Shown: positions 1 to 10,321 of the stretch, in pieces
Layout: every line of letters begins with the position of its first letter
Position numbering within the stretch: the stretch's first letter is position 1
Source of the DNA: a virus
Lineage: Duplodnaviria; Heunggongvirae; Uroviricota; Caudoviricetes
Length of the DNA stretch: 10,321 bases
Strand: one strand, 5' to 3'
IMG/VR virus record: IMGVR_UViG_2802429251_000008
Span: 1-10,321 of that record
The notes under the pieces: model-generated
The model's input: only the letters and a program-made list of their open reading frames with translations
The model's database searches: none
What the model was told of the DNA's origin: nothing
Program-made: the position numbers and the translations under genes

Positions 1-342
1 ATGATGAAAAAAAGTATTCTGGCGTTTCTGTTACTCACCAGTTCTGCAGCGGCGCTGGCGGCACCGCAGGTGATTACCGTCAGTCGTTTTGAAGTGGGTA
101 AAGACAAATGGGCATTTAACCGCGAAGAGGTAATGCTGACATGCCGACCGGGCCATGCGTTGTATGTTATTAATCCGAGTACCCTCGTGCAGTATCCTTT
201 GAACGATATCGCACAAAAGGAAGTCGCCAGCGGGAAGACCAATGCCCAGCCCATTTCGGTGATTCAGATTGATGATCCTAACAATCCAGGTGAAAAAATG
301 AGTCTGGCACCGTTTATAGAGCGAGCTGAAAAACTCTGTTAA
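1..342 (+). CDS. Small secreted/periplasmic protein of unknown function (host flanking gene)
   Basis: Complete ORF ATG..TAA; N-terminus [23 protein letters not shown] reads as a Sec signal peptide with an AxA cleavage site; followed by an intrinsic terminator. Family not recognised with certainty. Confidence 0.6.
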
Positions 343-371
343 TTACCTAAAATAGCCTTTTGATTTCCAAT

Positions 372-412
372 AAAAAACCGCCTCAGTTCTTTCACCAGAA
401 CAGGCGGTTTTT
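372..412. terminator. Bidirectional rho-independent terminator
   Basis: A-tract 372-377, stem CCGCCT(ca)GTTCT 378-390 pairing with AGAACAGGCGG 397-407, loop 391-396, T-tract 408-412. Can terminate both the upstream + gene and the leftward int transcript. Confidence 0.7.
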
Positions 413-568
413 AACATTTAAGCTGATGACCACCACGCTTTTTATTGACCATTTTGCACGCAAACTGGAAAACCTGGCGTCGTCATCTATTCTTAAAGGG
501 CAAGGCAACTAAGCCTGCATTAATGCCAACTTTTAGCGCACGGCTCTCTCCCAAGAGCCATTTCCCTG

Positions 569-602
569 GACCGAATACAGGAATCGTATTCGGTCTTTTT
601 TT
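569..602 (+). terminator. Intrinsic terminator-like hairpin plus T7 tract
   Basis: Perfect 10-bp inverted repeat GACCGAATAC (569-578) / GTATTCGGTC (586-595), 7-nt loop, then TTTTTTT 596-602. No ORF upstream on + strand; may end a small RNA or be part of the attachment region. Confidence 0.5.
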
Positions 603-636
603 AATTGTATTTAAAATCAATTAGTTGCAAACGCCT

Positions 637-656
637 CCCCGAAATTCCCCGAAATT
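637..656. repeat. Tandem direct repeat CCCCGAAATT x2 near int 3' end
   Basis: Exact 10-bp unit repeated twice, about 80 bp from the int stop; candidate integrase arm-type or accessory-factor binding sites in attL. Confidence 0.4.
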
Positions 657-733
657 TACTCGAATTTCTGTATTCCGGTCTTTTTTGGTTATATCACAAC
701 CAAAATGCATTTAACAATCCATTTACGTTAAAA

Positions 734-1810
734 TCAGAGCAGTAAGTACGTTTTTTCCCTCTCATCAAGATACATTTTTGTTGTCTTCTCCGATGTGTGG
801 CCAAGTAGACGCTGAGCAAATTCTTCTCCACATGTTTCTTTGTACAATCGTCCAGCCAGACTTCTGATCTCGTGAAAAGTTGGTGGGTTTTCACTGAACT
901 GGATACCTGTTAATTTTCTGGCTGCGACAAATTTTTTTGTCAGGCCGTCCGGGTGAATGCTGCCGTCAGGGCTGTTTTTTCTAATCCCGGCACTGATTAG
1001 ATAATCTCCCCGGCTTACCAGGCGGCACTGTTCAACTACTGTACCAAGCCGTAGACCAGCGACAGGAAGGCTGAGTGACAGGGGGATAGCAATCATCATT
1101 CCTGTCTTAATTTGCCTGATGTGGAGACGATCATCATAAATATCACTAAACCGCATATTCGTTATGTCTTCGCGACGTTGTCCTGTTACAAGGGCTAAAT
1201 CCATAGCTAATGGGAACCATGCCGGAAGTTGATCTGCTGCCTCCCTGATGCAGTTGTATGTCTTTAGTTTCAGTCGTTCTCTTGTAACTACTATTTTCGG
1301 TGCTCTTGTTGGTGTTACTGGATTTTGAGATATACGTCCTTCAACAATGGCCTCACGAAACATATCAGACAACACAGAACGCATTGATCCTGCCATTGTG
1401 TTTTTCCCTCCTTCAATCCACAAATCAAGAAACTCGGCAATATGGCGAGTGGTTATTTCTGTCAGTAAAATCTCTCCCAATTTTTCTTTTATTGTCTCCA
1501 GTTGATTTACCCGAATTTTATAAGTATTTCTGGACACTTTTCTCCTTATAAGAATCGTTTTGTAACGTTCAATCCAGTCTGCCATAGTAAATGAGTCGAG
1601 CCCTTTAAGCTTTTCAATTAAGGCAGCAGGAGAGTAGTTTTTGTATATATAATGATTTGCTTCAATTGCCTGCGCTACTGCATCTCTTCTTGAAATTTTA
1701 CCTAGTGTAAATTCTTCTTTCGTCAGAGGGTTGCGCCAGTAATATGCTTTGTCCCTCCTTCGATATGTTAAGTTTTTAGGCAAATTGGGATCGTATTTTT
1801 TCCGCTGCAT
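734..1810 (-). CDS. int: Lambda-family tyrosine integrase
   Basis: 358 aa; aligns by eye with lambda Int (PNLYxR..YY, TGQRxxD box, HExRSL..RLY box, LLGH...Y C-terminal catalytic Tyr). SD GGAGAAG 7 nt upstream of ATG at 1810. Confidence 0.9.
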
Positions 1811-2057
1811 GTTTTAACTTCTCCAGTAACGGACTGTCTCTCCCTTGTCGCCCATTAGGCTGATGGTGTGTTATATCGGTATCAACCTTATTTGGGTTGA
1901 TATAGAAAGCCTCCGGAACCACCCTGTAACTCCTCCCGTGTAGTTCAGGTGCAGGATAAATGTTTCCATTCCTTGCCCATCGTCTCAGCGTTGATATTGA
2001 TGGTGGGTTATCCGGATATCTGAGTTTTCCCCACGTTTTGAGTGTCACAAGATTCAT
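1776..2057 (-). CDS. xis: Excisionase-like DNA-binding protein
   Basis: Immediately upstream of and overlapping int by 35 nt (lambda xis/int arrangement); basic small protein. Start moved to the second in-frame ATG (2057), which has SD AGAGG at proper spacing. Confidence 0.65.
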   Translation of the reverse strand: MNLVTLKTWGKLRYPDNPPSISTLRRWARNGNIYPAPELHGRSYRVVPEAFYINPNKVDTDITHHQPNGRQGRDSPLLEKLKHAAEKIRSQFA

Positions 2058-2079
2058 TGCCATACCTCTTACGATATGA

Positions 2080-2108
2080 CCGCCAGTAAATATACAGAAT
2101 ACTGGCGG
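2080..2108. promoter_or_regulatory. 9-bp inverted repeat (CCGCCAGTA n11 TACTGGCGG) upstream of xis
   Basis: Perfect 9-bp arms read directly; no flanking T-tract, so more likely a protein-binding palindrome or RNA hairpin than a terminator. Confidence 0.3.
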
Positions 2109-2163
2109 ATGTGGTTGATTTTTAATAATCAGCTATGAAGTTCTAATTTGTATATAATGCAAC

Positions 2164-2352
2164 TCACGAGGACAGAAGTTTCTCGCAATTAAAATTTATC
2201 AGCTTTACTTTCTGCTCTCTGGAAACGCCTGCTTCTTTTTTCCCTGAGAGCATTTTTTCGCATTCTGATTTCGTTAATTTAGATTTTGAATATCTTGTCC
2301 AGTTAGTAGGAGTGCCACCTTCCTTTTCAATAGTGGCAGTAATTTTATACAT
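2164..2352 (-). CDS. Small hypothetical protein (Rac ydaC position)
   Basis: 62 aa from ATG at 2352 with strong SD GGAGGT 4 nt upstream; start overlaps the lar stop by 8 nt (translational coupling). Assignment by position only. Confidence 0.5.
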   Translation of the reverse strand: MYKITATIEKEGGTPTNWTRYSKSKLTKSECEKMLSGKKEAGVSREQKVKLINFNCEKLLSS

Positions 2353-2575
2353 GAACACCTCCATTATTATTTCCAGTAGTTCGTTTATTCCATCTTTCGA
2401 GTGCTTCTTTTTCACTTCCACTATAGCCGGTTCGGGATTCGCATCCGTTACACTTTGCGCGGTAATATCCTGAAATGGCTTTCACCGTTACTGATGGACA
2501 ACCACAAAATGGACATGGTTTGACTTTTGTGTATCGCACTGGTTTTTCTCCTGTGAGCTTTGTGGCTGCGCTCAT
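2345..2575 (-). CDS. ralR: Lar/RalR-family restriction-alleviation protein (Cys4 zinc-binding)
   Basis: Contains CPFCGC...CNGCES Cys4 motif typical of the Lar family; sits between exo and the small ORF as ralR does in Rac. Start chosen at ATG 2575 (SD GGGGAG 8 nt upstream), overlapping the exo stop as ATGA. Confidence 0.7.
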
Positions 2576-3252
2576 TTCCATTGCTCCCCAAATACAAAAC
2601 CAATTTCAGCCAGTGCCTCGTCCATTTTTTCGATGAATTCTGGCACCATCTCGTCAAAACTCGCCATGTACTTTTCATCCCGCTCAACCACGACATAATG
2701 CAGGCCTTCACGCTTCATACGCGGGTCATAGTTGGCAAAGTACCAGGCATCTTTTTGCGTCACCCACATGCTGTACTGCACCTGGGCCATGTAAGCCGAC
2801 TTTATGGCCTCGAAACCACCGAGCCGGAACTTCATGAAATCCCGGGAGGTGAACGGGCATTTCAGCTCAAGGCCGTTGCCGTCATTGCATAAACCATCGG
2901 GAGAGCAGGCGGTGCGCATAGTCTCGTCACGATAGATGATCGGGGATTCAGTAACATTCACGCCGGAAGTGAACTCAAACAGGGTTCTGGCGTCGTTCTC
3001 GTACTGTTTTCCCCAGGCCAGCGCCTTAGCGTTAACTTCCGGAGCCACACCGGTGCAAACCTCGGCAAGCAGGGTGTGGAAGTAGGACATTTTCATGTCA
3101 GGCCATTTCTTTCCGGAGCGGGGTTTTGCTATCACGTTGTGAACTTCTGAAGCTGTGATGACGCCGAGCCGTAATTTGTGCCACGCATCATCCCCCTGTA
3201 CGATAGCTCTCACGTCGATCCCGGTACGCTGCAGGATAATGTCCGGTGTCAT
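2572..3252 (-). CDS. exo: Lambda exonuclease (Red alpha)
   Basis: 226 aa, near-identical to lambda Exo from memory ([17 protein letters not shown]...GFVFGEQW); start overlaps the bet stop. Confidence 0.95.
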
Positions 3253-4034
3253 ATTGCCACCTTCTGCTCTGCGGCTTTCTGTTTCAGGAATCCAAGAGCT
3301 TTCACTGCTTCGGCCTGTTTCAGTTCTGACAATGCATGAATGTCGCGGCGAAATATCTGGGAACAGAGCGGCAATAAGTCGTCATCCCATGTTTTATCCA
3401 GGGCGATCAGCAGAGTGTTAATCTCCTGCATGGTTTCATCGTTAACCGGAGTGATGTCGCGTTCCGGCTGATGTTCTGCAGTGCATGCGGTATTTTCGAC
3501 AATGCGCTCGGCTTCATCCTTGTCATAGATACCAGCAAATCCGAAGGCCAGACGGGCACACTGAATCATGGCTTTATGCCGTAACATCCGTTTGGGATGC
3601 GACTGCCATGGTCCGATGATTTCTTTGCCTTCTCGGGTTTTGAATGGTTCGCGACGGCACTCATCCATCCACTCGGTAACGCAGATCGGATGATTACGGT
3701 CCTTGCGGTAAATCCGGCATGTACATGATTCATTGTCCTGCTCAAAGTCCATGCCATCAAACTGCTGGTTTTCATTTATGATGCGGGACCAGCCATCAAC
3801 GCCCACCACCGGAACAATGCCGTTCTGCTTATCAGGGAAGGCGTAAATCTCTTTCGTCCACGGATTAAGTCCGTACTGGTTGGCGACGATCAGCAGCGCG
3901 ATGAATTGCGCATCGCTGGCATTACCTTTAAATGCCGTCTGGCGAAGAGTGGCGATCAGTTCCTGCGGGTCGACAGAATCCATGCCGACGCGTTCAGCCA
4001 GCTTCCCGGCCAGTGTTGCAAGTGCTGTACTCAT
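3249..4034 (-). CDS. bet: Lambda Bet single-strand annealing protein (Red beta)
   Basis: 261 aa, near-identical to lambda Bet from memory ([27 protein letters not shown]...). Confidence 0.95.
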
Positions 4035-4039
4035 TCGTT

Positions 4040-4339
4040 TTATACCTCTGAATCAATATCAACCTGGTGACGAGCAATGGTTTCAACCATGTACCGGATG
4101 TGCTCCGCCACACGTTCCTGAAATTCAACATCGTCATCAAATGCGCGACTGATTGCCTGTTTGCTGGCACCGTGGCGTTGCAAATGGTCGATGCAGAGCG
4201 ATTCAAACAGATGCTGGGGCAGACCTTTTTCCAGGTCGTCCGCCAGCGCCGTTTCTTTTTCTTCGCGAACGATTTGCTGGTAGTGGCGTGACCATGCCTG
4301 CTCTTCAATGCGATCAAAAATTGGGCATGTACTCATCAT
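4040..4339 (-). CDS. gam: Gam, RecBCD inhibitor (short GamS-length form)
   Basis: 99 aa; from residue 13 onward matches lambda Gam C-terminal 86 residues (SRHYQQ...HQVDIDSEV). The first 12-15 residues differ from lambda and the upstream frame is occupied by the ORF672 3' end. Confidence 0.9.
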
Positions 4340-6332
4340 CCGTCACCCCAAAATTTTCAAGTTTGTTTGCAATCATCATTGCAATACCCGGAATTAATGG
4401 CGCTGAGGCTATACCCGCAGGATTTGCACATAAACCGTAAACCGCTGCAATCACCACTTGTCTTTTCCAGTCGAGTTTTTCTAATGATGAAGCTGCTGCT
4501 TCGCCAGTTTCATCACTGCAATCGCGATGCGGATCGCTGCCATCGTTCTCCTTGTGCGGATGTTCAGCACCTTCCATTTCCTCCAGACCTTTTTCCTGAT
4601 ATTCATTCTGATTTTCTTCATTAAAGGTTTTCTGATACGTTGCGTCGCCCATCACCGCGCCGCAGTCAGGACAGTTGCCGCCGCCAGCCTGACCGCAGGC
4701 GATGCAAACTTTCTCCGTTTCCTGTTGTTGCACTACTGGCTCAGGCTGTTTCGTTTCTGGCTCGTTTTGTTGCGTATTTGGGTCGTTCTGTTCCGCTTTT
4801 TGGTCGTTATGTTCCGTTTCTGGCTGATTCTGGTACACAGAGTCGCGGGTCTGGATCCCCTTAACCCATTTCGGATCATTCGGGTCGCTAATCCCTTCAA
4901 CAAATTCTCCGCGAGAGGCAGCCAGTAATTTGTCTGCATCGACAGGATTTTTGGGCGGAATGTTTTTCCGGGCTTCATGGAGTTCTGCCCGCAGTTTCTG
5001 ATATTTCGCATCAACAGAATTTACCTGTGACTGAGCATCCAGCGACTGCGTGTCCTGATGATGTTCAGTTGCATCCGGTTCCACTGTTTCAGCCGTTGCC
5101 TGTTCATCTGCCATTGCGCAAGATGGTTGCAGTTTTTCTTCATCATCCTGTTTTTCTTCTTCTGTTACACGCTGCGGCATCGGGGCAGAGGAACGACCGC
5201 AGGCAATATCCACGATTTCTGGATCAGGGTTGGCATGATCAGTTTCAGTCAGTACTTTGTTTAGATATTCAGTGACGTGTGCGGGGATAACCTCGATCCC
5301 AATTGGTGCTTCTTTTACGGACGCAACCACGATGGCGCGGGAATAATCCAGCCCGCCAGGCATGGTGATGAATTTGTCGCGGAAAACAGAAAAGGGCGGT
5401 TTATTTTCAGCGATAATTTCCTCGACACGTTTAGCGTGTGCCGGATGAAGGTTATAAATGTCCACGTCCATTGAACGAGCCAGTACGCCAGTGGCTACGT
5501 CGCGCGCCAGTGACGTCAGATCGTGAACGAAACCTTCGCCGCGATCGGTGAGGTTCCCGCCGCCAGCATTAGCGCCGGAAGCCGTGCGCGTGATGCGTGA
5601 AACACGATTTCCTTTCATCCACTCTTTTGTCAGCAGACCACGATCGGTGTAGTCTGCGTCCAGGTATGCTTCGAAAAAAGCAGTCATCAGCCCCAGGCTT
5701 GAATTGCCTGGATTAGGGAAAACTCTGTCAGTATCACGCACCAGTTTGTGGAGATCGCGAATTTCCAGCGGGTCGAGCAGGCTGGTTTTGTGGGAAACAG
5801 CCAGGGCAGTAACAGCTGGTAGTTCTTCAGCTCGTGCAATGTGTAATGCCTGGAGTTCGTCGCGTGAAACGTGCGTTACCGGTTTTTCGCTGCCGTGTTG
5901 AGCAAGCCAGCGAATGGGCAGCTCCTGACCGGAAATCGGGAGTAGCATATTCTCCTCAATCTCCGTCATGTCTTCGCCATTAACATTGGTATTGTCAGTG
6001 CTGGCTGGTTTGTCCTGCGCAGAGGATGAGGGCGCGATAAATACCATTGTGATGCCATCTTCCCCGCCTTTTTCGTAACGGTTGCAGAATTCCGTATCAA
6101 ATACGCCCTCTGGTGGAAGGTCATCAACAACGGGCAAATTGACGCGAACAGGTTTTTTAAAGTCATCTTCATCGTAGCCAGCATCGTCAATCGCAACAGC
6201 ACCACGGGATATGGCAATGGATAATTTTTTCGCTTCAGCCCAGTAGAAACCGCCTTTAATACCGAGACGTTTTCTTACTTTGTCATTTTTTGCTTCGTAA
6301 TACAGTGGGTAAACTTGTTTATCGGTGCTCAT
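4314..6332 (-). CDS. Large uncharacterised early-operon protein; possible RecE N-terminal-region relative without a nuclease domain
   Basis: 672 aa uninterrupted; SD GAGG upstream of ATG 6332; stop overlaps gam start by about 26 nt. Globular N-terminal region, acidic low-complexity middle, five heptapeptide repeats, CxxC-x9-CxxC zinc ribbon, and a Gly/Ala/Pro-rich hydrophobic C-terminal tail. Occupies the recE slot of Rac. Confidence 0.75.
4736..4850. repeat. Degenerate 21-bp tandem repeats inside ORF672
   Basis: Units such as GGTCGTTCTGTTCCGCTTTTT / GGTCGTTATGTTCCGTTTCTGG on + strand; encode [35 protein letters not shown] on the minus-strand frame. Confidence 0.6.
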
Positions 6333-6401
6333 TGTTTTTTAACCTCAACTCAGATTAAAATTACTGCGAGTGATGAATAAATGTCCTAGGTTCTTCACTC
6401 A

Positions 6402-6432
6402 GGCCTGCACAGTGTGCAGGCTTTCTTTTTTT
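6402..6432 (+). terminator. Plus-strand-oriented hairpin plus T-tract inside the leftward operon
   Basis: 9-bp arms GCCTGCACA / TGTGCAGGC (6402-6420) then TTTCTTTTTTT (6422-6432), abutting the racC-like stop. Oriented against the surrounding genes. Confidence 0.4.
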
Positions 6433-6707
6433 CAGATTTCACCTTTTAATTTCATTGCAATCAGAGTTGCCAGAAATTCGGCTTTTTTTTCTGCGGGCAG
6501 ATTCTTTCCTATGTGCACCAGACACATTTCTTTAACACCATCGTTAAGTGTTTTAACGTTGCCTGATGGACCGTCGATATCAACCACAGTGAATGGGGTT
6601 TCTTTATTTTCTGTCTTAATCACGTAGCCAATACGCTTTCCTTCCAGGGTAACTTCGTGAACAATGTCATCAGTAGTAACAACAGTGGCTTCATAACTGG
6701 TAATCAT
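6432..6707 (-). CDS. racC: RacC-like small protein
   Basis: 91 aa from ATG 6707 (SD AAGGAG 6 nt upstream); size and position match Rac racC. Symbol assigned by size and synteny, not sequence recall. Confidence 0.55.
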   Translation of the reverse strand: MITSYEATVVTTDDIVHEVTLEGKRIGYVIKTENKETPFTVVDIDGPSGNVKTLNDGVKEMCLVHIGKNLPAEKKAEFLATLIAMKLKGEI

Positions 6708-6781
6708 GTTTTTCTCCTTAATTAAGGTTGATCGAATCCCTGCCATTGCTGGCATAAATTCAGTTTCGGATAGTCAGTTAA

Positions 6782-6952
6782 TTAAAGTTCGTGTGCCATC
6801 TGGTCTTTTTCGGCACAACTTTCACTACAATATTTTTTCATTTCCGTCGTTGGGATAACTCCACGCATGAAATGAAGAGGTCTTTTAATACTTTTGCTTT
6901 CTTCAATTTCTTTATTGCAAAGGTGGTAAGCACATTTTATTTTCTTAGTCAT
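6782..6952 (-). CDS. ydaE: YdaE-like small Cys-rich zinc-binding protein
   Basis: 56 aa, below the 60-aa ORF-track cutoff and found by manual translation: [56 protein letters not shown] (CxxxxC...CxxxC). Start overlaps upstream stop as TGATG. Size and order match Rac ydaE. Confidence 0.55.
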   Translation of the reverse strand: MTKKIKCAYHLCNKEIEESKSIKRPLHFMRGVIPTTEMKKYCSESCAEKDQMAHEL

Positions 6953-7173
6953 CACCATGACTCCGCCTTTACAGGTAAACCATCACGACCGAGGAAGACT
7001 TTAATCATGCAGTCAGAAATGCATGTTTTTGTAGTCAGGTTACGAATATAAAGTTTTCGCTTTTTAATATTGTTTGCCGAGGCGATATATGTCCGGCCTT
7101 CATGAAGAACATAATCACCAGGAGTCACACACTGACGTGGTATTTCATCAGTTCCGAAGTGATGTGCAATCAT
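6952..7173 (-). CDS. kilR: KilR-like small protein (candidate FtsZ/cell-division inhibitor)
   Basis: 73 aa from ATG 7173 (SD GGAG 6 nt upstream; the track start at 7185 overlaps the SD). Size and order match Rac kilR. Function inferred from Rac. Confidence 0.55.
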
Positions 7174-7248
7174 AATTATCTCCATTTTTACAAATGAACT
7201 TTGTTGATGCGGTGCCTGGCGCCTCCAGGTGACTGCAACCAGTTAACA

Positions 7249-7277
7249 ATTACAGTCGGCTTTCCCACCCAAACCAA
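7249..7277 (-). promoter_or_regulatory. Candidate sigma70 promoter for kilR-ydaE-racC
   Basis: Minus-strand -35 TTGGTT (7277..7272), 17-bp spacer, -10 TGTAAT (7254..7249); the leader would contain the CCTGG-n5-CCAGG hairpin. Confidence 0.25.
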
Positions 7278-7346
7278 TAAGGACTAACATGACTTTTAAC
7301 TGTGCCGCGTGCGCTTAGCCGCATTCACCGCATCACAAAATTCACT

Positions 7347-7392
7347 TTAAAAAGGGGCGGCAGGGCAGCCACGGAGTAGAACTGATGCCGCC
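7347..7392 (-). terminator. Candidate leftward intrinsic terminator
   Basis: On minus strand: stem GGCGGCA (7392..7386) / TGCCGCC (7362..7356), 23-nt loop, then CC + TTTTT (7353..7349). Long loop lowers confidence. Confidence 0.3.
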
Positions 7393-7516
7393 AAAGACTA
7401 CACATAGCAATGTCGTTATTTACAACCGGAGGCGCACTCCCACCATTTAAATTTAACAGACAAGACCGACTCTTTATGAATACCGGAAATGCACCTTCGT
7501 GTTGTGCGCCTGTCTT

Positions 7517-7544
7517 TTTACCACTTCAGGCTCGGTGGTATACT
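7517..7544 (+). promoter_or_regulatory. Extended -10 promoter for the + strand 64-aa ORF
   Basis: TGgTATACT (7536-7544) with -35-like TTTACC (7517-7522) at 16-bp spacing; ATG at 7579 preceded by TAAGG. Confidence 0.4.
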
Positions 7545-7578
7545 GGAGTTCTCACACAACCAGTAATAAGGTATTCCG

Positions 7579-7773
7579 ATGGATAATAAAGACAAAGCCT
7601 GGCTACTTGCTTTAGCTTTCAGCATCAGATCGCAGCGAGAAACAACTCATCAAGAATTTTTCTCGGAAATCGAGAATGCTGAGAATGAGTTTTTGTCACT
7701 ACTCAATGAACGTGATGCTAAAAAAAGCTCCGATTCACTTAAGGCTTGGGCGAAACTAGGCTCTTCAAAATAA
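7579..7773 (+). CDS. Small hypothetical protein (64 aa), opposite in orientation to neighbours
   Basis: ATG start with SD-like TAAGG, own promoter, two in-frame stops immediately upstream; 3' end overlaps the convergent 72-aa ORF by 35 nt. No recognisable family. Confidence 0.4.
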   Translation: MDNKDKAWLLALAFSIRSQRETTHQEFFSEIENAENEFLSLLNERDAKKSSDSLKAWAKLGSSK

Positions 7774-7957
7774 TTGCTTCTGTAGCGGCATGAACAACTG
7801 TTTTTGCCGCCTCTTCAACTTCCTTGTCTGGACGACCAGCCTTTACTTTTTCTGCAATGACCTCCAGCACAGTTGGAAGAACCTTGCTAATAAGCATGGC
7901 TGCCACATCTTTGCTGCACAATTGACCGTTAATAACAACCAGATCTTCACCAACCAT
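7739..7957 (-). CDS. Small hypothetical protein (72 aa), first gene after the leftward promoter
   Basis: ATG 7957 with SD AAGGGG 7 nt upstream; downstream of a consensus-like promoter. Not Arg-rich, so not an N-type antiterminator. Confidence 0.45.
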   Translation of the reverse strand: MVGEDLVVINGQLCSKDVAAMLISKVLPTVLEVIAEKVKAGRPDKEVEEAAKTVVHAATEAIILKSLVSPKP

Positions 7958-8022
7958 CTTTTTTCCCCTTAACGCCGGGTGGCGGAACTAAAACCTACAG
8001 CGCCGTGCTGTTCTTGATAGAA

Positions 8023-8051
8023 ATATTAGTAACACGGATATTTTAAGTCAA
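8023..8051 (-). promoter_or_regulatory. Leftward early promoter (pL-equivalent candidate)
   Basis: Minus-strand -35 TTGACT (8051..8046), 17-bp spacer, -10 TAATAT (8028..8023); sits between the racR terminator and the 72-aa ORF in an AT-rich region. Confidence 0.45.
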
Positions 8052-8147
8052 TAGTATGGCGTATGATATTTTTGATTTAGTAACTATGTAAATGTTTTTT
8101 CAAGGGAAAAATATTAGTTATACAGCTGATTTGCAGAAGTTATGGCA

Positions 8148-8177
8148 CAAAAAAACCGACTAAGACGTCGGTTTTTT
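8148..8177. terminator. Bidirectional intrinsic terminator downstream of racR
   Basis: AAAAAAA (8148-8154), stem ACCGAC / GTCGGT with 4-6 nt loop, then TTTTTTT (8171-8177). Confidence 0.7.
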
Positions 8178-8204
8178 TGTTGTGGATGGGGTAGTGAGTA
8201 GTGG

Positions 8205-8666
8205 CTACTGGTTACGTTTCTTTAGTGCCAGCATGTTCTCGAAGGCTTCCTCGTAGAGCTTGTTTAGTCCACGTAGCTGGTTAAGGAGTTTGGCTTTTTC
8301 TGACGCAGGTAGAATCTCGAAGAGGTTAAGTAACTCAGCCTGTTCTTCATTGACCAGCCTCCATCCTTTGCCTGAAAAGCTATCATCATAAGTATCTGAT
8401 GATCTTACATAATTCATTAAGTCTTTAAGGTCTTCTCGAATGTCCTCTGGTTTTACCTTTAACAGAGCCGCAAATTTTAGCGCAGCGTCGGTATTTACCG
8501 GTATCTTGCCGTTCAGATACTGGCTAACGGTGCCTTGAGATTCGAATCCCAACAACTCAGCCGCCAGCTCTTGAGTCAGCTTCAGCTCTTTTTTTCTTGC
8601 ATTCCATGCGGCTTTTAAATTCTTGCTCGCTTCTGGAGTTGCAATCACTTCGCGTGTTTTTTTCAT
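8205..8666 (-). CDS. racR: XRE-family HTH prophage repressor (RacR-like)
   Basis: 153 aa; N-terminal HTH (LTQELAAELLGFESQGTVSQYLNG); divergent from ydaS-ydaT exactly as racR is in Rac. Confidence 0.8.
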   Translation of the reverse strand: MKKTREVIATPEASKNLKAAWNARKKELKLTQELAAELLGFESQGTVSQYLNGKIPVNTDAALKFAALLKVKPEDIREDLKDLMNYVRSSDTYDDSFSGKGWRLVNEEQAELLNLFEILPASEKAKLLNQLRGLNKLYEEAFENMLALKKRNQ

Positions 8667-8690
8667 ACATAGAGTTTATTTGTTTTACCA

Positions 8691-8767
8691 ATATTATCAA
8701 AGATAGTCTGACTGTTGATCTTTAAAATTAGTGGGGCTAATATTTGATCGAGGCATAACGTAGAAGG
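8691..8767. promoter_or_regulatory. Divergent promoter/operator region between racR and ydaS
   Basis: Plus-strand -35 TTGATC (8715-8720), 17-bp spacer, -10 TAATAT (8738-8743) for ydaS; minus-strand -10-like TAATAT (8696..8691) for racR; palindromic elements AAAGAT-n14-ATCTTT (8699-8724) and AGTCtGACT (8705-8713). Confidence 0.45.
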
Positions 8768-8773
8768 TTGGCT

Positions 8774-9049
8774 ATGAACTTAAGAGACTATTTAAAAGAG
8801 AAACATATCACCCAGTTACAGTTTGGGAAGCTAACGGGTTTATCTCAGGTGCATGTAAGTCGAGTGCTGGGGGGCTATGAAAGATTCAGCCCTGAAAAAG
8901 CATTACGTGTTGCTGAAGTAACGAATTTCGAGGTTACACCTCATGAACTCCGGCCTGATATCTACCCGAATCCGACCGATGGTTTACCTGTTGGATGTAA
9001 GGCTAACACACAAAATGCACAGGAGTTGATTCATGAAAATCAGGCATGA
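8774..9049 (+). CDS. ydaS: YdaS-like Cro/HTH protein (toxic when derepressed in Rac)
   Basis: 91 aa from ATG 8774 (SD GAAGG; the track start at 8768 is TTG); HTH GLSQVHVSRVLGG; overlaps ydaT start by 17 nt. Confidence 0.75.
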   Translation: MNLRDYLKEKHITQLQFGKLTGLSQVHVSRVLGGYERFSPEKALRVAEVTNFEVTPHELRPDIYPNPTDGLPVGCKANTQNAQELIHENQA

Positions 9050-9455
9050 GCACATCGAATCAGTGTTGTTAGCCCTAGCCGCTGAAAAAGGGCAGGCGTG
9101 GGTCGCTAACGCAATTACTGAAGAATATCTGCGCCAGGGGGGCGGCGAATTGCCCCTGGTACCAGGCAAGGACTGGAATAATCAGCAGAACATCTATCAC
9201 CGTTGGTTAAAAGGTGAAACGGAAGCGCAAAGGGAAAAAATTCAGACACTGATCCCTGCGGTTCTGGCAATTCTTCCGCGCGAGCTGCGTCACCGACTCT
9301 GCATCTTCGATACCCTGGAACGCCGTGCATTACTGGCGGCGCAGGAAGCGTTGAGTACGGCAATTGATGCGCATGATGATGCAGTCCAGGCCGTTTACCG
9401 GAAAGCACATTTCAGCGGTGGTGGGTCGCCCGGTGATTCTGTCGTAGTGCATTGA
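9033..9455 (+). CDS. ydaT: YdaT-like protein
   Basis: 140 aa; matches Rac YdaT in length and in recalled sequence (MKI.HEHIESVL.ALAAEKGQAWVANAITEEYLRQGGGELPLVPGKDWNNQQNIYHRWLKGE...); SD AGGAG 7 nt upstream. Confidence 0.8.
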   Translation: MKIRHEHIESVLLALAAEKGQAWVANAITEEYLRQGGGELPLVPGKDWNNQQNIYHRWLKGETEAQREKIQTLIPAVLAILPRELRHRLCIFDTLERRALLAAQEALSTAIDAHDDAVQAVYRKAHFSGGGSPGDSVVVH

Positions 9456-9500
9456 TTGAAATTAATCGTGCCGGATTGTTTTGTTCGGTATCAGTTAAAT

Positions 9501-9519
9501 GTAACGCTGCGAGCGTTAC
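9501..9519. repeat. 19-bp perfect palindrome GTAACGCT-GCG-AGCGTTAC just upstream of the O-position gene SD
   Basis: Read directly; copy 1 of a repeated palindrome family. Confidence 0.7.
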
Positions 9520-9532
9520 AAGGTGAAAACAA

Positions 9533-10321
9533 ATGGCTTCAAACTGGATAAAGCTCGAGGTTATTACGCCGGATAAGCCGGAAATATTCAGGCTTGCTGA
9601 GATTCTGAATATTGATCCAGATGCCGCATTAGGGAAGGTTATTCGCTTCTGGGCATGGGCGGATCAACAAATGATAGACGGTAATGCAGATTGTAACGCT
9701 CGCGGCGTTACAAAAAGTGCAATAGATCGCATCACTTTTATGGCTGGTTTTGCTGATGCGTTAATTCAGGTTGGATGGCTGGTCGAAAATGACGTTGGGC
9801 TTTCTCTACCTAACTTTGAACGTCATAACGGAAAAAGCTCTAAAAAACGGGCGGTTACAAACGAGCGAGTTACAAAAATACGCGAACTGAAACGAAAAGG
9901 TAACGCTACCAGCGTTACACAAACGGATCAAAAAGCGTTACCAGAGGAAGAGGAAGAGGAAGATATAAATACTGATCTCCCCCTAAATCCCCCTCGCCAA
10001 AAACGAGCGTCTAAAAAATTCGAGCCGGAGGCTATTGAGCTGCCCGATTGGTTGCCGGAAACACTCTGGCATGAGTGGGTCCGGTTCAGGCAGGCATTGC
10101 GAAAACCGATTCGAACGGAGCAGGGCGCTAACGGGGCGATACGGGAACTGGAAAAATTCCGCCAGCAGGGTTTTACACCTGAGCAGGTGATTCGACACAG
10201 CATCGCCAATGAATACCAGGGCCTGTTCGCGCCGAAAGGTGTTCGGCCTGAGACGTTGCTCCGACAGGTTAACACCGTCTCGTTGCCGGACAGTGCGATC
10301 CCGCCTGGCTTCAGGGGGTAA
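9533..10321 (+). CDS. Putative replication-initiator-like protein (lambda O position; Rac ydaU slot) with internal palindromic repeats and acidic linker
   Basis: 262 aa complete ORF ending at the last base of the window; follows ydaS-ydaT; contains EEEEEED linker right after the DNA repeats. Replication role inferred by synteny only. Confidence 0.6.
   Translation: MASNWIKLEVITPDKPEIFRLAEILNIDPDAALGKVIRFWAWADQQMIDGNADCNARGVTKSAIDRITFMAGFADALIQVGWLVENDVGLSLPNFERHNGKSSKKRAVTNERVTKIRELKRKGNATSVTQTDQKALPEEEEEEDINTDLPLNPPRQKRASKKFEPEAIELPDWLPETLWHEWVRFRQALRKPIRTEQGANGAIRELEKFRQQGFTPEQVIRHSIANEYQGLFAPKGVRPETLLRQVNTVSLPDSAIPPGFRG
9693..9711. repeat. Palindrome copy 2 (GTAACGCT-CGC-GGCGTTAC)
   Basis: 18 of 19 positions match copy 1; lies inside the coding sequence. 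Confidence 0.65.
9900..9918. repeat. Palindrome copy 3 (GTAACGCT-ACC-AGCGTTAC)
   Basis: Perfect 8-bp arms; flanked by degenerate copies (GTTACAAA x2 at about 9853-9876, AGCGTTAC at 9934-9941) and followed by GAGGAAGAGGAAGAGGAAGA. Confidence 0.65.

Follow-up and report, generated by a model that had tools for sequence, protein, structure and literature searches.

A convergent pair of small overlapping genes in a cassette site of the early-left region of a Rac-like prophage

Results

Two convergent genes between the repressor gene and kilR

The stretch of DNA analysed here, referred to as the window, comprises 10,321 nucleotides (positions 1 to 10,321) of IMG/VR virus record IMGVR_UViG_2802429251_000008 and belongs to a Rac-like lambdoid prophage next to yebY and sdsR/ryeA. 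Within it two small open reading frames (ORFs), which we call ORF64 and ORF72 from their lengths in amino acids, face each other on opposite strands and overlap at their 3' ends. They had been picked out in an earlier reading made from the sequence alone, as a 64-residue plus-strand frame and a 72-residue minus-strand frame sharing 35 bp between kilR and a racR-like repressor gene. The coordinates are confirmed in the ORF list and the placement is also correct; the same slot holds sieB in the K-12-type Rac prophage. The features of the pair are as follows.

7579–7773, plus strand: ORF64, the 'A' gene and moron of the cassette; 64 amino acids, hydrophilic, predicted to form two helices; supported by conservation and a coding signature.
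7739–7957, minus strand: ORF72, the 'B' gene and the first in the early-left operon by position; 72 amino acids, predicted to form a beta-hairpin and two long amphipathic helices.
7739–7773, both strands: tail-to-tail overlap of ORF64 and ORF72, 35 bp, dual coding.
7567–7572, plus strand: Shine-Dalgarno-like TAAGGT, 6 nt 5' of the ATG of ORF64, read from the sequence.

ORF64 and ORF72 are conserved as proteins

By themselves, the ORF pair and its promoter matches do not rise above chance. Many spurious overlapping ORFs, some of them of similar size, are present in the window, and the six promoter-like sites found there compare with 2.9 ± 1.7 in shuffled sequences. The reality of the genes was therefore judged on comparative evidence. 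Both are annotated as hypothetical proteins in E. coli by the Prokaryotic Genome Annotation Pipeline (PGAP), and they correspond end to end to phrog_22868 (ORF64) and phrog_23495 (ORF72), two PHROGs of unknown function. Homologues, all of them named 'hypothetical', are found on more than 1000 contigs from E. coli, Shigella sonnei, Salmonella, Klebsiella, Raoultella, Citrobacter and Superficieibacter, and intact copies at 40–70% identity occur in prophages of Escherichia, Shigella, Salmonella, Klebsiella, Raoultella and Citrobacter. In the Klebsiella-type copies ORF72 is ~68% identical and ORF64 ~41–48% identical; the exact lengths and the 35-bp overlap are retained both there and in the Escherichia sp. 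copies.

Outside the overlap, the ratio of non-synonymous to synonymous substitution (dN/dS) of ORF72 is 0.09–0.14, while for ORF64 the synonymous sites (dS) are saturated and dN is 0.37–0.56. Identity at the first, second and third codon positions between the E. coli and Klebsiella lineages is 0.62, 0.73 and 0.32 in ORF64 and 0.74, 0.85 and 0.42 in ORF72. Antisense frames were used as controls in these deep comparisons: three of the four are without a signal of purifying selection (dN/dS 0.43–4.4), and the fourth, frame 1 opposite ORF64, gives a low dN/dS of 0.14–0.29, probably because its wobble positions are shared with ORF64, which leaves this control only partly clean. Conservation of the coding sequence is highest in the overlap, with an identity between these lineages of 0.84 versus 0.55 and 0.67 in the non-overlapping parts, as dual coding is expected to produce. 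Conserved residues of ORF64 are D5, K6, A7, W8, L9, L10, F38 and W57 with the LGS that follows it. On this comparative evidence, ORF64 and ORF72 are both genuine genes under purifying selection.

It could be supposed that the two frames are open by chance or are sieB remnants put out of frame, since the window holds so many spurious overlapping ORFs of similar size and the promoter matches are by themselves within chance. The coding signature, the conservation across genera and the full-length PHROG matches contradict this. Descent from a sieB-like gene, which the sequence-only reading had itself raised, was examined by tblastn with SieB and YdaG of the K-12-type Rac prophage (L002), which match nothing in any frame of 7186–8204 apart from noise at E > 1; the pair are not sieB fragments. 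The coding signature and the tblastn result together already refute this explanation, which we regard as vanishingly improbable.

ORF64 contains a run of seven A residues at 7720–7726 (plus strand). In five chicken E. coli genomes the cassette is 1 nt longer and carries a single annotated gene. Length variants of the tract may represent slippage-prone inactivation.

ORF72 lies at the head of the early-left operon

The elements upstream of ORF72 are the following.

8051–8023, minus strand: predicted early-left promoter, equivalent to pL (TTGACT, 17 nt, TAATAT).
7966–7988, minus strand: conserved leader GTTCCGCCACCCGGCGTTAAGGG, running into the ribosome-binding site AAGGGG (7965–7970) of ORF72.
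8021–8029, plus strand: operator-like 9-mer AAATATTAG, overlapping the −10 of the early-left promoter; repeat D1.
8109–8117, plus strand, and 8737–8745, minus strand: further exact copies of AAATATTAG, exact repeats.

The sequence-only reading had assigned a separate promoter to each gene. A match is indeed present at both of the places given; the minus-strand promoter, however, is not private to ORF72, being the equivalent of pL, and it lies just past the putative terminator of the repressor gene (8147–8180). A 23-nt leader, GTTCCGCYACCCGGCGWTAAGGG, is identical 5' of ydaG in the K-12-type Rac prophage (L002), of rac11 in Rac-SA53 (L003) and of ORF72, and it precedes ORF72 in every locus that lacks an N gene (E. 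coli, Escherichia sp. and Klebsiella), despite their different immunity regions. In two loci, L007 and L005, a near-consensus −35, TTGAC(A/G), stands at the same place in surrounding DNA that cannot be aligned, the promoter match of L005 being confirmed separately, and in L004 a TTGACA lies nearby, placed a few columns off by MAFFT. In phages that have an N gene, the homologues of ORF72 come immediately after it. In all of the contexts examined, ORF72 and its homologues are leftward genes, placed just after the repressor and pL or after N and ahead of kil and the recombination genes. By position, then, ORF72 stands first in the early-left operon.

Exact copies of AAATATTAG occur only three times in the 10.3-kb window, two at pL and one in the intergenic region between the repressor gene and ydaS. 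This is the pattern expected of operators and suggests that they are candidate half-sites of the RacR/DicA-like repressor. In the Rac prophage of K-12, ydaG, ydaF and kilR are derepressed 40–70-fold or more without RacR control, and ydaE and racC are likewise strongly derepressed (PMC11014345; bioRxiv 10.64898/2026.09.06.749655). The operator-like 9-mers and the precedent of ydaG in K-12 suggest that pL is under the control of the immunity repressor here also.

Small hairpins are found along this region. The leader GTTCCGCYACCCGGCGWTAAGGG holds a CGCC/GGCG hairpin adjoining the ribosome-binding site. Directly past the predicted early-left start, at 7997–8011 (minus strand), is a terminator-like hairpin, ACAGCACGGCGCTGT then AGGTTTTAGT, that may stabilise the 5' end or act as an attenuator; different hairpins are seen at the equivalent position in other loci.

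ORF64 is preceded by a near-invariant block with a predicted promoter

Upstream of ORF64, two features were defined.

7508–7566, plus strand: 59-nt promoter and 5' untranslated block of ORF64, with −35 TTTACC at 7517–7522 and extended −10 TGgTATACT at 7536–7544.
7541–7546 and 7560–7565, plus strand: inverted repeat TACTGG/CCAGTA within the block, with an N13 spacer.

The plus-strand promoter match (7517–7544) consists of TTTACC, 16 nt and TATACT with an upstream TG. The block covers the −35, the extended −10 and ~20 nt further, up to the Shine-Dalgarno sequence, and has the consensus GCCTGTCTTTTyACCACTTCAGGCTCGGTGGTATrCTGGAGTTCTCACACAACCAGyAA. It is ~95% identical between E. coli and Klebsiella, with three fixed differences, where the third positions of ORF64 are identical at only 0.32, and the DNA on either side of it is unrelated or saturated. 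The extended −10 match and the retention of the block across genera and cargo types suggest that ORF64 is an independent unit with its own predicted promoter.

Two main haplotypes of the block exist, TATACTGG..CCAGTAA and TATGCTGG..CCAGCAA, with diverged forms in L050, L052 and L055. The inverted repeat becomes TGCTGG/CCAGCA in the second haplotype and TCCTCT/AGAGGA in the diverged L052. This covariation (A:T to G:C, with a third form in L052) is suggestive only. The two main forms belong to linked haplotypes with further differences outside the repeat, and for this reason neither pairing nor an operator was taken as proven. An antiterminator like the put RNA of HK022, or some other structured RNA, was also considered for the block and rejected: the folding z-scores of −0.11 (minus strand) and −0.79 (plus strand) are no better than those of shuffled sequences, two stable adjacent stem-loops are lacking and the Klebsiella-type loci have no DicF terminator to overcome. 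Rfam finds nothing in the block, even below threshold.

The slot is a cassette site

The core of the block was found in 114 contigs of IMG/VR; of 5426 complete E. coli genomes, 80 carry it. The ORF64/ORF72 cassette is found in 29 of the same 5426 genomes, and parts of its flanks match in 3835. The cassette is exchangeable between related prophages, as other cargos sit behind the same block. In a survey of viral loci, for which 80 were fetched (L057–L136), a gene starts 22–31 nt after the block pattern in 72. These A genes belong to at least 13 unrelated families, of 59–148 amino acids. A convergent minus-strand gene, the B gene, has its 3' end within 46 bp of the A gene in 66 of the 72 loci. 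The overlaps between A and B range from 4 to 179 bp (35 bp in two families, 39 bp in rac10/rac11 and 63–72 bp in the 113-residue family), and about six loci have no overlap, the two genes there being 4–46 bp apart. Wherever the downstream genes were examined, the block lies between the B gene and kil. None of 11 A- and B-type proteins scanned against Pfam scored above the gathering cut-off, the sole hit being a sub-threshold zinc-ribbon, and none of 10 scanned with PADLOC gave a match.

The A families pair almost one to one with C-terminal families of the B protein. Different A families, on the other hand, have N-terminal B modules in common (Bn1, Bn4 and Bn7), and the B proteins are therefore mosaics. 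One shared N-terminal module of ~35 residues, 'ELKHVIALLLEDAKRLQQIEPNAGTEARI', is joined to unrelated C-terminal parts in L057, L058, L078, L128 and L055; a second has the pattern '..LP..VQ.IAAQ.LA..'. The proteins that share modules fall in phrog_12693, 30817 and 2982, again PHROGs of unknown function. As only the C-terminal part tracks the A gene and the N-terminal modules shuffle, part of the A/B association must be put down to the physical overlap and to the recombination joints.

The same slot in Rac-SA53 (L003, 2872–3372) carries the convergent rac10/rac11 with an overlap of 39 bp, and in the K-12-type Rac prophage (L002, 2793–3701) it carries sieB facing ydaG. Homology of the pair to rac10/rac11 was looked for and is absent, and sieB and ydaG are likewise unrelated in sequence to ORF64 and ORF72. 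Thus, the slot is a swap-prone, hypervariable cassette site between the early-left promoter and DicF–kilR. That lambdoid phages carry a moron or exclusion slot in their early-left region is known. What appears not to have been described before is that convergent pairs recur in it, usually overlapping, that the promoter block is portable and invariant, and that the B proteins are mosaics.

Searches for the identity of the two proteins

Neither protein had been recognisable in the sequence-only reading, and this did not change with database searches. Pfam and NCBIfam hold no family for ORF64 or ORF72, PADLOC gives no match for either, sequence-profile searches of the PDB return nothing below E 0.27, and fold searches give generic helical-hairpin matches or none, so that no named family emerges from any of these. 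An exhaustive search of 1.84 billion representatives with a profile hidden Markov model of ORF72 found only 15 proteins, all small and unannotated. A scan of genome contigs gave one irrelevant match, a poor yield that is explained by the species-representative genomes rarely carrying this prophage. Both proteins are already in the databases, as hypothetical proteins only; we found no paper that mentions their accessions or PHROG identifiers, and on this slot the literature search turned up only lists of derepressed Rac genes.

The AlphaFold2 model of ORF64 has two helices with a predicted local distance difference test score (pLDDT) of 74, and that of ORF72 a beta-hairpin and two long amphipathic helices (pLDDT 80, predicted template modelling score 0.60). 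ORF64 has a grand average of hydropathy of −0.77 and no transmembrane segment. The maximum 19-residue Kyte–Doolittle window (KD19) is −0.13 for ORF64 and 1.61, a borderline value, for ORF72, which is mildly hydrophobic overall; SieB reaches 2.06.

ORF64 and ORF72 are inherited together

Intact ORF64 is present in 40 of the 42 fetched loci that have an ORF72 homologue. More distant ORF72-like genes, at ~25–45% identity (P0061, P0067 and P0068), keep a convergent, overlapping ORF64-like partner of 61–64 amino acids. Two such partners align end to end with the ORF64 profile in hhalign with probabilities of 87% (E 4e-6) and 83% (E 9e-6). In the distant pairs the overlap is 29, 83 or ~104 bp. Three lineages have the ORF72 domain fused to a shared N-terminal module, and they too retain an ORF64-like partner. 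It is the whole ORF72 domain, beyond the 11 overlapping codons, that stays with ORF64 in the distant and fused lineages.

Co-inheritance of this kind might also arise if the two were functionally independent accessory genes that travel together through their 3' overlap, with the recombination joints outside it. ORF72 would then be an early-left host-takeover or anti-defence gene at the position of ral in lambda, and ORF64 an unrelated lysogenic-conversion moron. The position of ORF72 homologues directly after N, like early genes, fits this explanation, as do the B modules Bn1, Bn4 and Bn7 that are shared across A families while the overlapping B C-terminus tracks A. So do two loci in which the partners have come apart: in L011 no ORF64 is recognisable beside the ORF72 homologue, and in L050 a 143-residue ORF72-like gene faces a different A gene, of 80 residues, behind the same block. 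Coupling of ORF64 with ORF72 is likely but, from these loci, not obligatory. Independence accounts less well for the whole ORF72 domain accompanying ORF64-like genes down to ~25% identity, the three fusion lineages included, and for the rarity of separation when neighbouring cassettes recombine right beside the overlap and separation is evidently possible. We consider functional independence of the two genes doubtful.

The surrounding prophage

The gene order of the window is int and xis; RalR/RalA and Lar; YqaJ exonuclease, RecT and Gam; a 672-residue RecE-N protein; kilR; and then the helix-turn-helix (HTH) repressor, ydaS, ydaT and replication genes. The features nearest the pair are listed here.

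6952–7185, minus strand: kilR, cell-division inhibitor, as annotated by PGAP in the homologous locus; follows DicF as the next gene leftward.
7355–7406, minus strand: small RNA (sRNA) DicF and its terminator (RF00039, 60.9 bits versus a gathering score of 48; terminator-like site at 7372–7357, minus strand).
8147–8180, no strand assigned: bidirectional terminator-like hairpin ACAAAAAAACCGAC/GTCGGTTTTTTTGT (repeat I1, 14-nt arms, 100% complementary), which the terminator scan did not flag.
8205–8666, minus strand: RacR/DicA-like HTH immunity repressor, from domain search and PGAP.

DicF, which was overlooked in the sequence-only reading, sits between the pair and kilR in the same leftward unit as ORF72. 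With DicF and KilR both in the leftward operon, two cell-division inhibitors are carried there. Lambda_Kil/KilR is downstream of the pair in all of the Klebsiella-type and Escherichia sp. loci compared, and the Klebsiella-type loci are without DicF and its terminator. The hairpin at 8147–8180 is plausibly both the end of the repressor gene and the first stop for a transcript of ORF64. The spacer between DicF and kilR (7180–7365, minus strand) gives a sub-threshold match to the STnc100 sRNA (37.7 bits versus a gathering score of 47, E 2e-6).

Further away, the type I pair of RalR (DUF1187; 2164–2421, minus strand) and the RalA sRNA (2168–2346, plus strand, 223.8 bits) is intact and is adjoined by the restriction-alleviation gene Lar (2345–2581, minus strand). 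The sRNA pair SraC/RyeA and SdsR/RyeB (462–606) and yebY (DUF2511; 1–342) are directly beside the integrase gene (734–1810), which places the prophage at the yebY–sdsR locus and not at the Rac site of K-12. The recombination module is unusual in that it contains a 672-residue protein with only an N-terminal Exonuc_VIII domain (4314–6332), together with a lambda-type Gam (4040–4339), RecT (3249–4034) and a separate YqaJ exonuclease (2572–3252), all on the minus strand. The 672-residue protein is comparable to the nuclease-less 'RecE-2' (PMC12315714).

Discussion

A possible reciprocal switch

We tentatively propose that the pair is a reciprocal lysogeny/lysis switch, in which ORF64 is a prophage-state effector and ORF72 its early-lytic antagonist; the proposal is best taken as possible, short of probable. 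The leftward operon would comprise the pL-like promoter (8051–8023), the 23-nt leader, ORF72, the antisense of ORF64, DicF, kilR and the recombination genes. ORF64 would be a moron inserted against this operon and driven by the portable, near-invariant block at 7508–7566. No terminator-like site is found on the plus strand from 7773 to the 8147–8180 hairpin, the moron's own terminator thus not being found, nor on the minus strand from 7739 to DicF. Antisense control or transcriptional interference, which the sequence-only reading had suggested, is geometrically possible, since the scan showed no intrinsic terminator from one promoter to the other, and reciprocal expression is therefore predicted.

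In a lysogen, the repressor would shut pL and ORF64 would be made. Its transcript would run antisense over ORF72 and into pL, and could act as an extra brake on leaky DicF and KilR. On derepression, strong leftward transcription would make ORF72 and overrun ORF64 together with its promoter. ORF64 could be an effector of the prophage state, either exclusion- or defence-like or host-modulating. ORF72 as its early-lytic antagonist would leave the prophage's own induction unharmed, a form of cognate self-immunity.

Part of this scheme can be stated for the RNA alone, without a role for the proteins. The plus-strand unit would then matter as RNA, with a promoter that fires against the early-left operon and cargo ORFs that are passengers, and leaky DicF and KilR would be suppressed in lysogens by collision, promoter occlusion or antisense RNA. 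DicF and KilR both block cell division, and their leakage in lysogens would be costly. The block is far more conserved than its cargo and serves at least 13 cargo families indifferently, its place wherever the downstream genes were examined is between the B gene and kil, and no terminator was found before pL, all of which would be expected of such a brake. It sits poorly with the selection on ORF64 as a protein, the length of which is kept across genera, the third positions of which are least conserved and which has conserved residues. As a full account of the locus an RNA brake seems to us unlikely; it partly complements a switch made of two proteins and does not exclude it.

The proposed two-protein switch has several points against it. 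The sequence and fold searches revealed no likeness of ORF64 or ORF72 to known toxins or antitoxins, or to known proteins of defence or anti-defence. The promoter match of ORF64 is modest, at 9/12 hexamer positions in E. coli and 8/12 in Klebsiella, and 59 nt at 95% identity exceeds what a promoter would need. A natural A6 variant of the A7 tract, a −1 frameshift of ORF64 giving a 59-residue protein with a changed C-terminus, persists in many genomes (P0029, 30 contigs) and speaks against coupling of the two genes. To these are added the separated partners of L011 and L050, and the behaviour of the slot elsewhere, where co-variation with A is limited to the C-terminal part of B, which largely overlaps A, and the N-terminal modules shuffle freely.

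The frameshift variant bears also on whether the pair could be a classical toxin–antitoxin (addiction) module that stabilises the prophage, with type II-like protein partners or a type I-like antisense antitoxin. Small, tightly linked and co-inherited genes with antisense-capable transcription would suit such a module, and the same prophage carries a bona fide type I system in ralR/RalA. The two genes are convergent on opposite strands, however, and not co-transcribed in one operon as in type II, and no DNA-binding antitoxin domain or known toxin fold is seen in either protein. With ORF64 hydrophilic and ORF72 borderline by KD19, they seem unlike type I toxins, and both partners are conserved proteins. 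Frameshifted forms of ORF64 persist, which makes an essential antitoxin role for it unlikely. We therefore think an addiction module quite improbable.

Significance of the slot

If the reciprocal switch is real, it would be a natural two-protein switch set by convergent transcription at the boundary between lysogeny and lysis, and the slot would be a compact, easily cloned source of exclusion and self-immunity pairs of 60–150-residue proteins. Such pairs would escape current defence finders, none of the tested proteins being in PADLOC. The slot is promising as a candidate source of phage-exclusion or self-protection genes. A broader suggestion, in which we have rather little confidence, is that it is an unrecognised promoter-anchored hotspot of cognate convergent mini-gene pairs, lysogen effectors and their early-lytic antagonists, in the lambdoid prophages of Enterobacteriaceae. 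The anchors for swapping would then be the 59-nt block on one side and the shared leader or B N-terminal module on the other, and the site would hold a store of very small systems of exclusion and self-immunity, or of defence and anti-defence, under the control of convergent transcription. The locus also bears on how Rac-like prophages silence DicF and KilR in lysogens, and the invariant block is a simple sequence handle for cataloguing the cassettes across genomes, whatever their function.

Comparison with known systems

The closest precedent in position is the superinfection-exclusion gene sieB of Rac, lambda and P22, which like the pair occupies the slot between kil and the immunity region and which, in the K-12-type Rac prophage, lies like ORF64 on the strand opposite the early-left genes ydaG and ydaF. 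sieB is expressed from the prophage, and lambda and P22 have an escape function of their own, esc. SieB is a membrane protein of ~190–200 amino acids, whereas ORF64 is a hydrophilic, helical protein of 64 residues without sequence similarity to it, and the sieB cassette is without the second half of the conserved promoter block. The escape function of lambda and P22 is an in-frame internal product of sieB, whereas here the counterpart would be a convergent second gene.

Face-to-face overlapping transcription units like those of the pair are also found in lambda OOP RNA/cII and in pR/pL of coliphage 186, convergent units of which one state silences the other through RNase III-dependent antisense RNA or transcriptional interference. 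Those systems have a non-coding partner or close promoters overlapping at their 5' ends, whereas here there are two conserved proteins and promoters ~500 bp apart, and interference is predicted.

The leftward unit is also similar to the dicB operon of Qin (ydfA-ydfB-ydfC-dicF-dicB). Both belong to a lambdoid prophage without N, both are under repressor control (predicted in the present case) and in both, small ORFs of unknown function precede the DicF sRNA and a gene for a cell-division inhibitor, dicB in Qin and kilR here. We know of no antisense moron between the small ORFs and dicF in Qin. ORF72 was compared with YdfA, YdfB and YdfC through their Pfam and NCBIfam families only, without direct alignment of the proteins, and no match was found. 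DicF and DicB of Qin are described in PMC6832061.

The moron concept, of an independent transcription unit in a prophage (Hendrix/Juhala; Cumby et al. 2012, PMC3594210), applies to ORF64 in that it has its own, predicted promoter, stands between operon genes, is horizontally exchangeable and would be expected to be expressed in the lysogen. Unlike that of usual morons, its promoter is a portable, near-invariant 59-nt block common to at least 13 unrelated cargo genes, the cargo almost always has a convergent partner, usually overlapping or abutting, and no dedicated terminator was found.

Prophage defences with cognate self-immunity include BstA/aba, Tha (PMC11087260) and HepS (PMC13043305), and defence hotspots are found in P2 and P4 (PMC9122126). 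The proteins of the slot are much smaller than those of these systems and none is in PADLOC or similar to a known defence protein; a defence role for them is putative. What the proposed pair would share with the self-immune defences is a function expressed by the prophage that spares its own lytic cycle, and the slot resembles the P2/P4 hotspots in its conserved flanks and many alternative cargo cassettes. The reciprocal switch proposed for ORF64 and ORF72 would thus follow the logic of sieB and esc and that of prophage defences with self-immunity.

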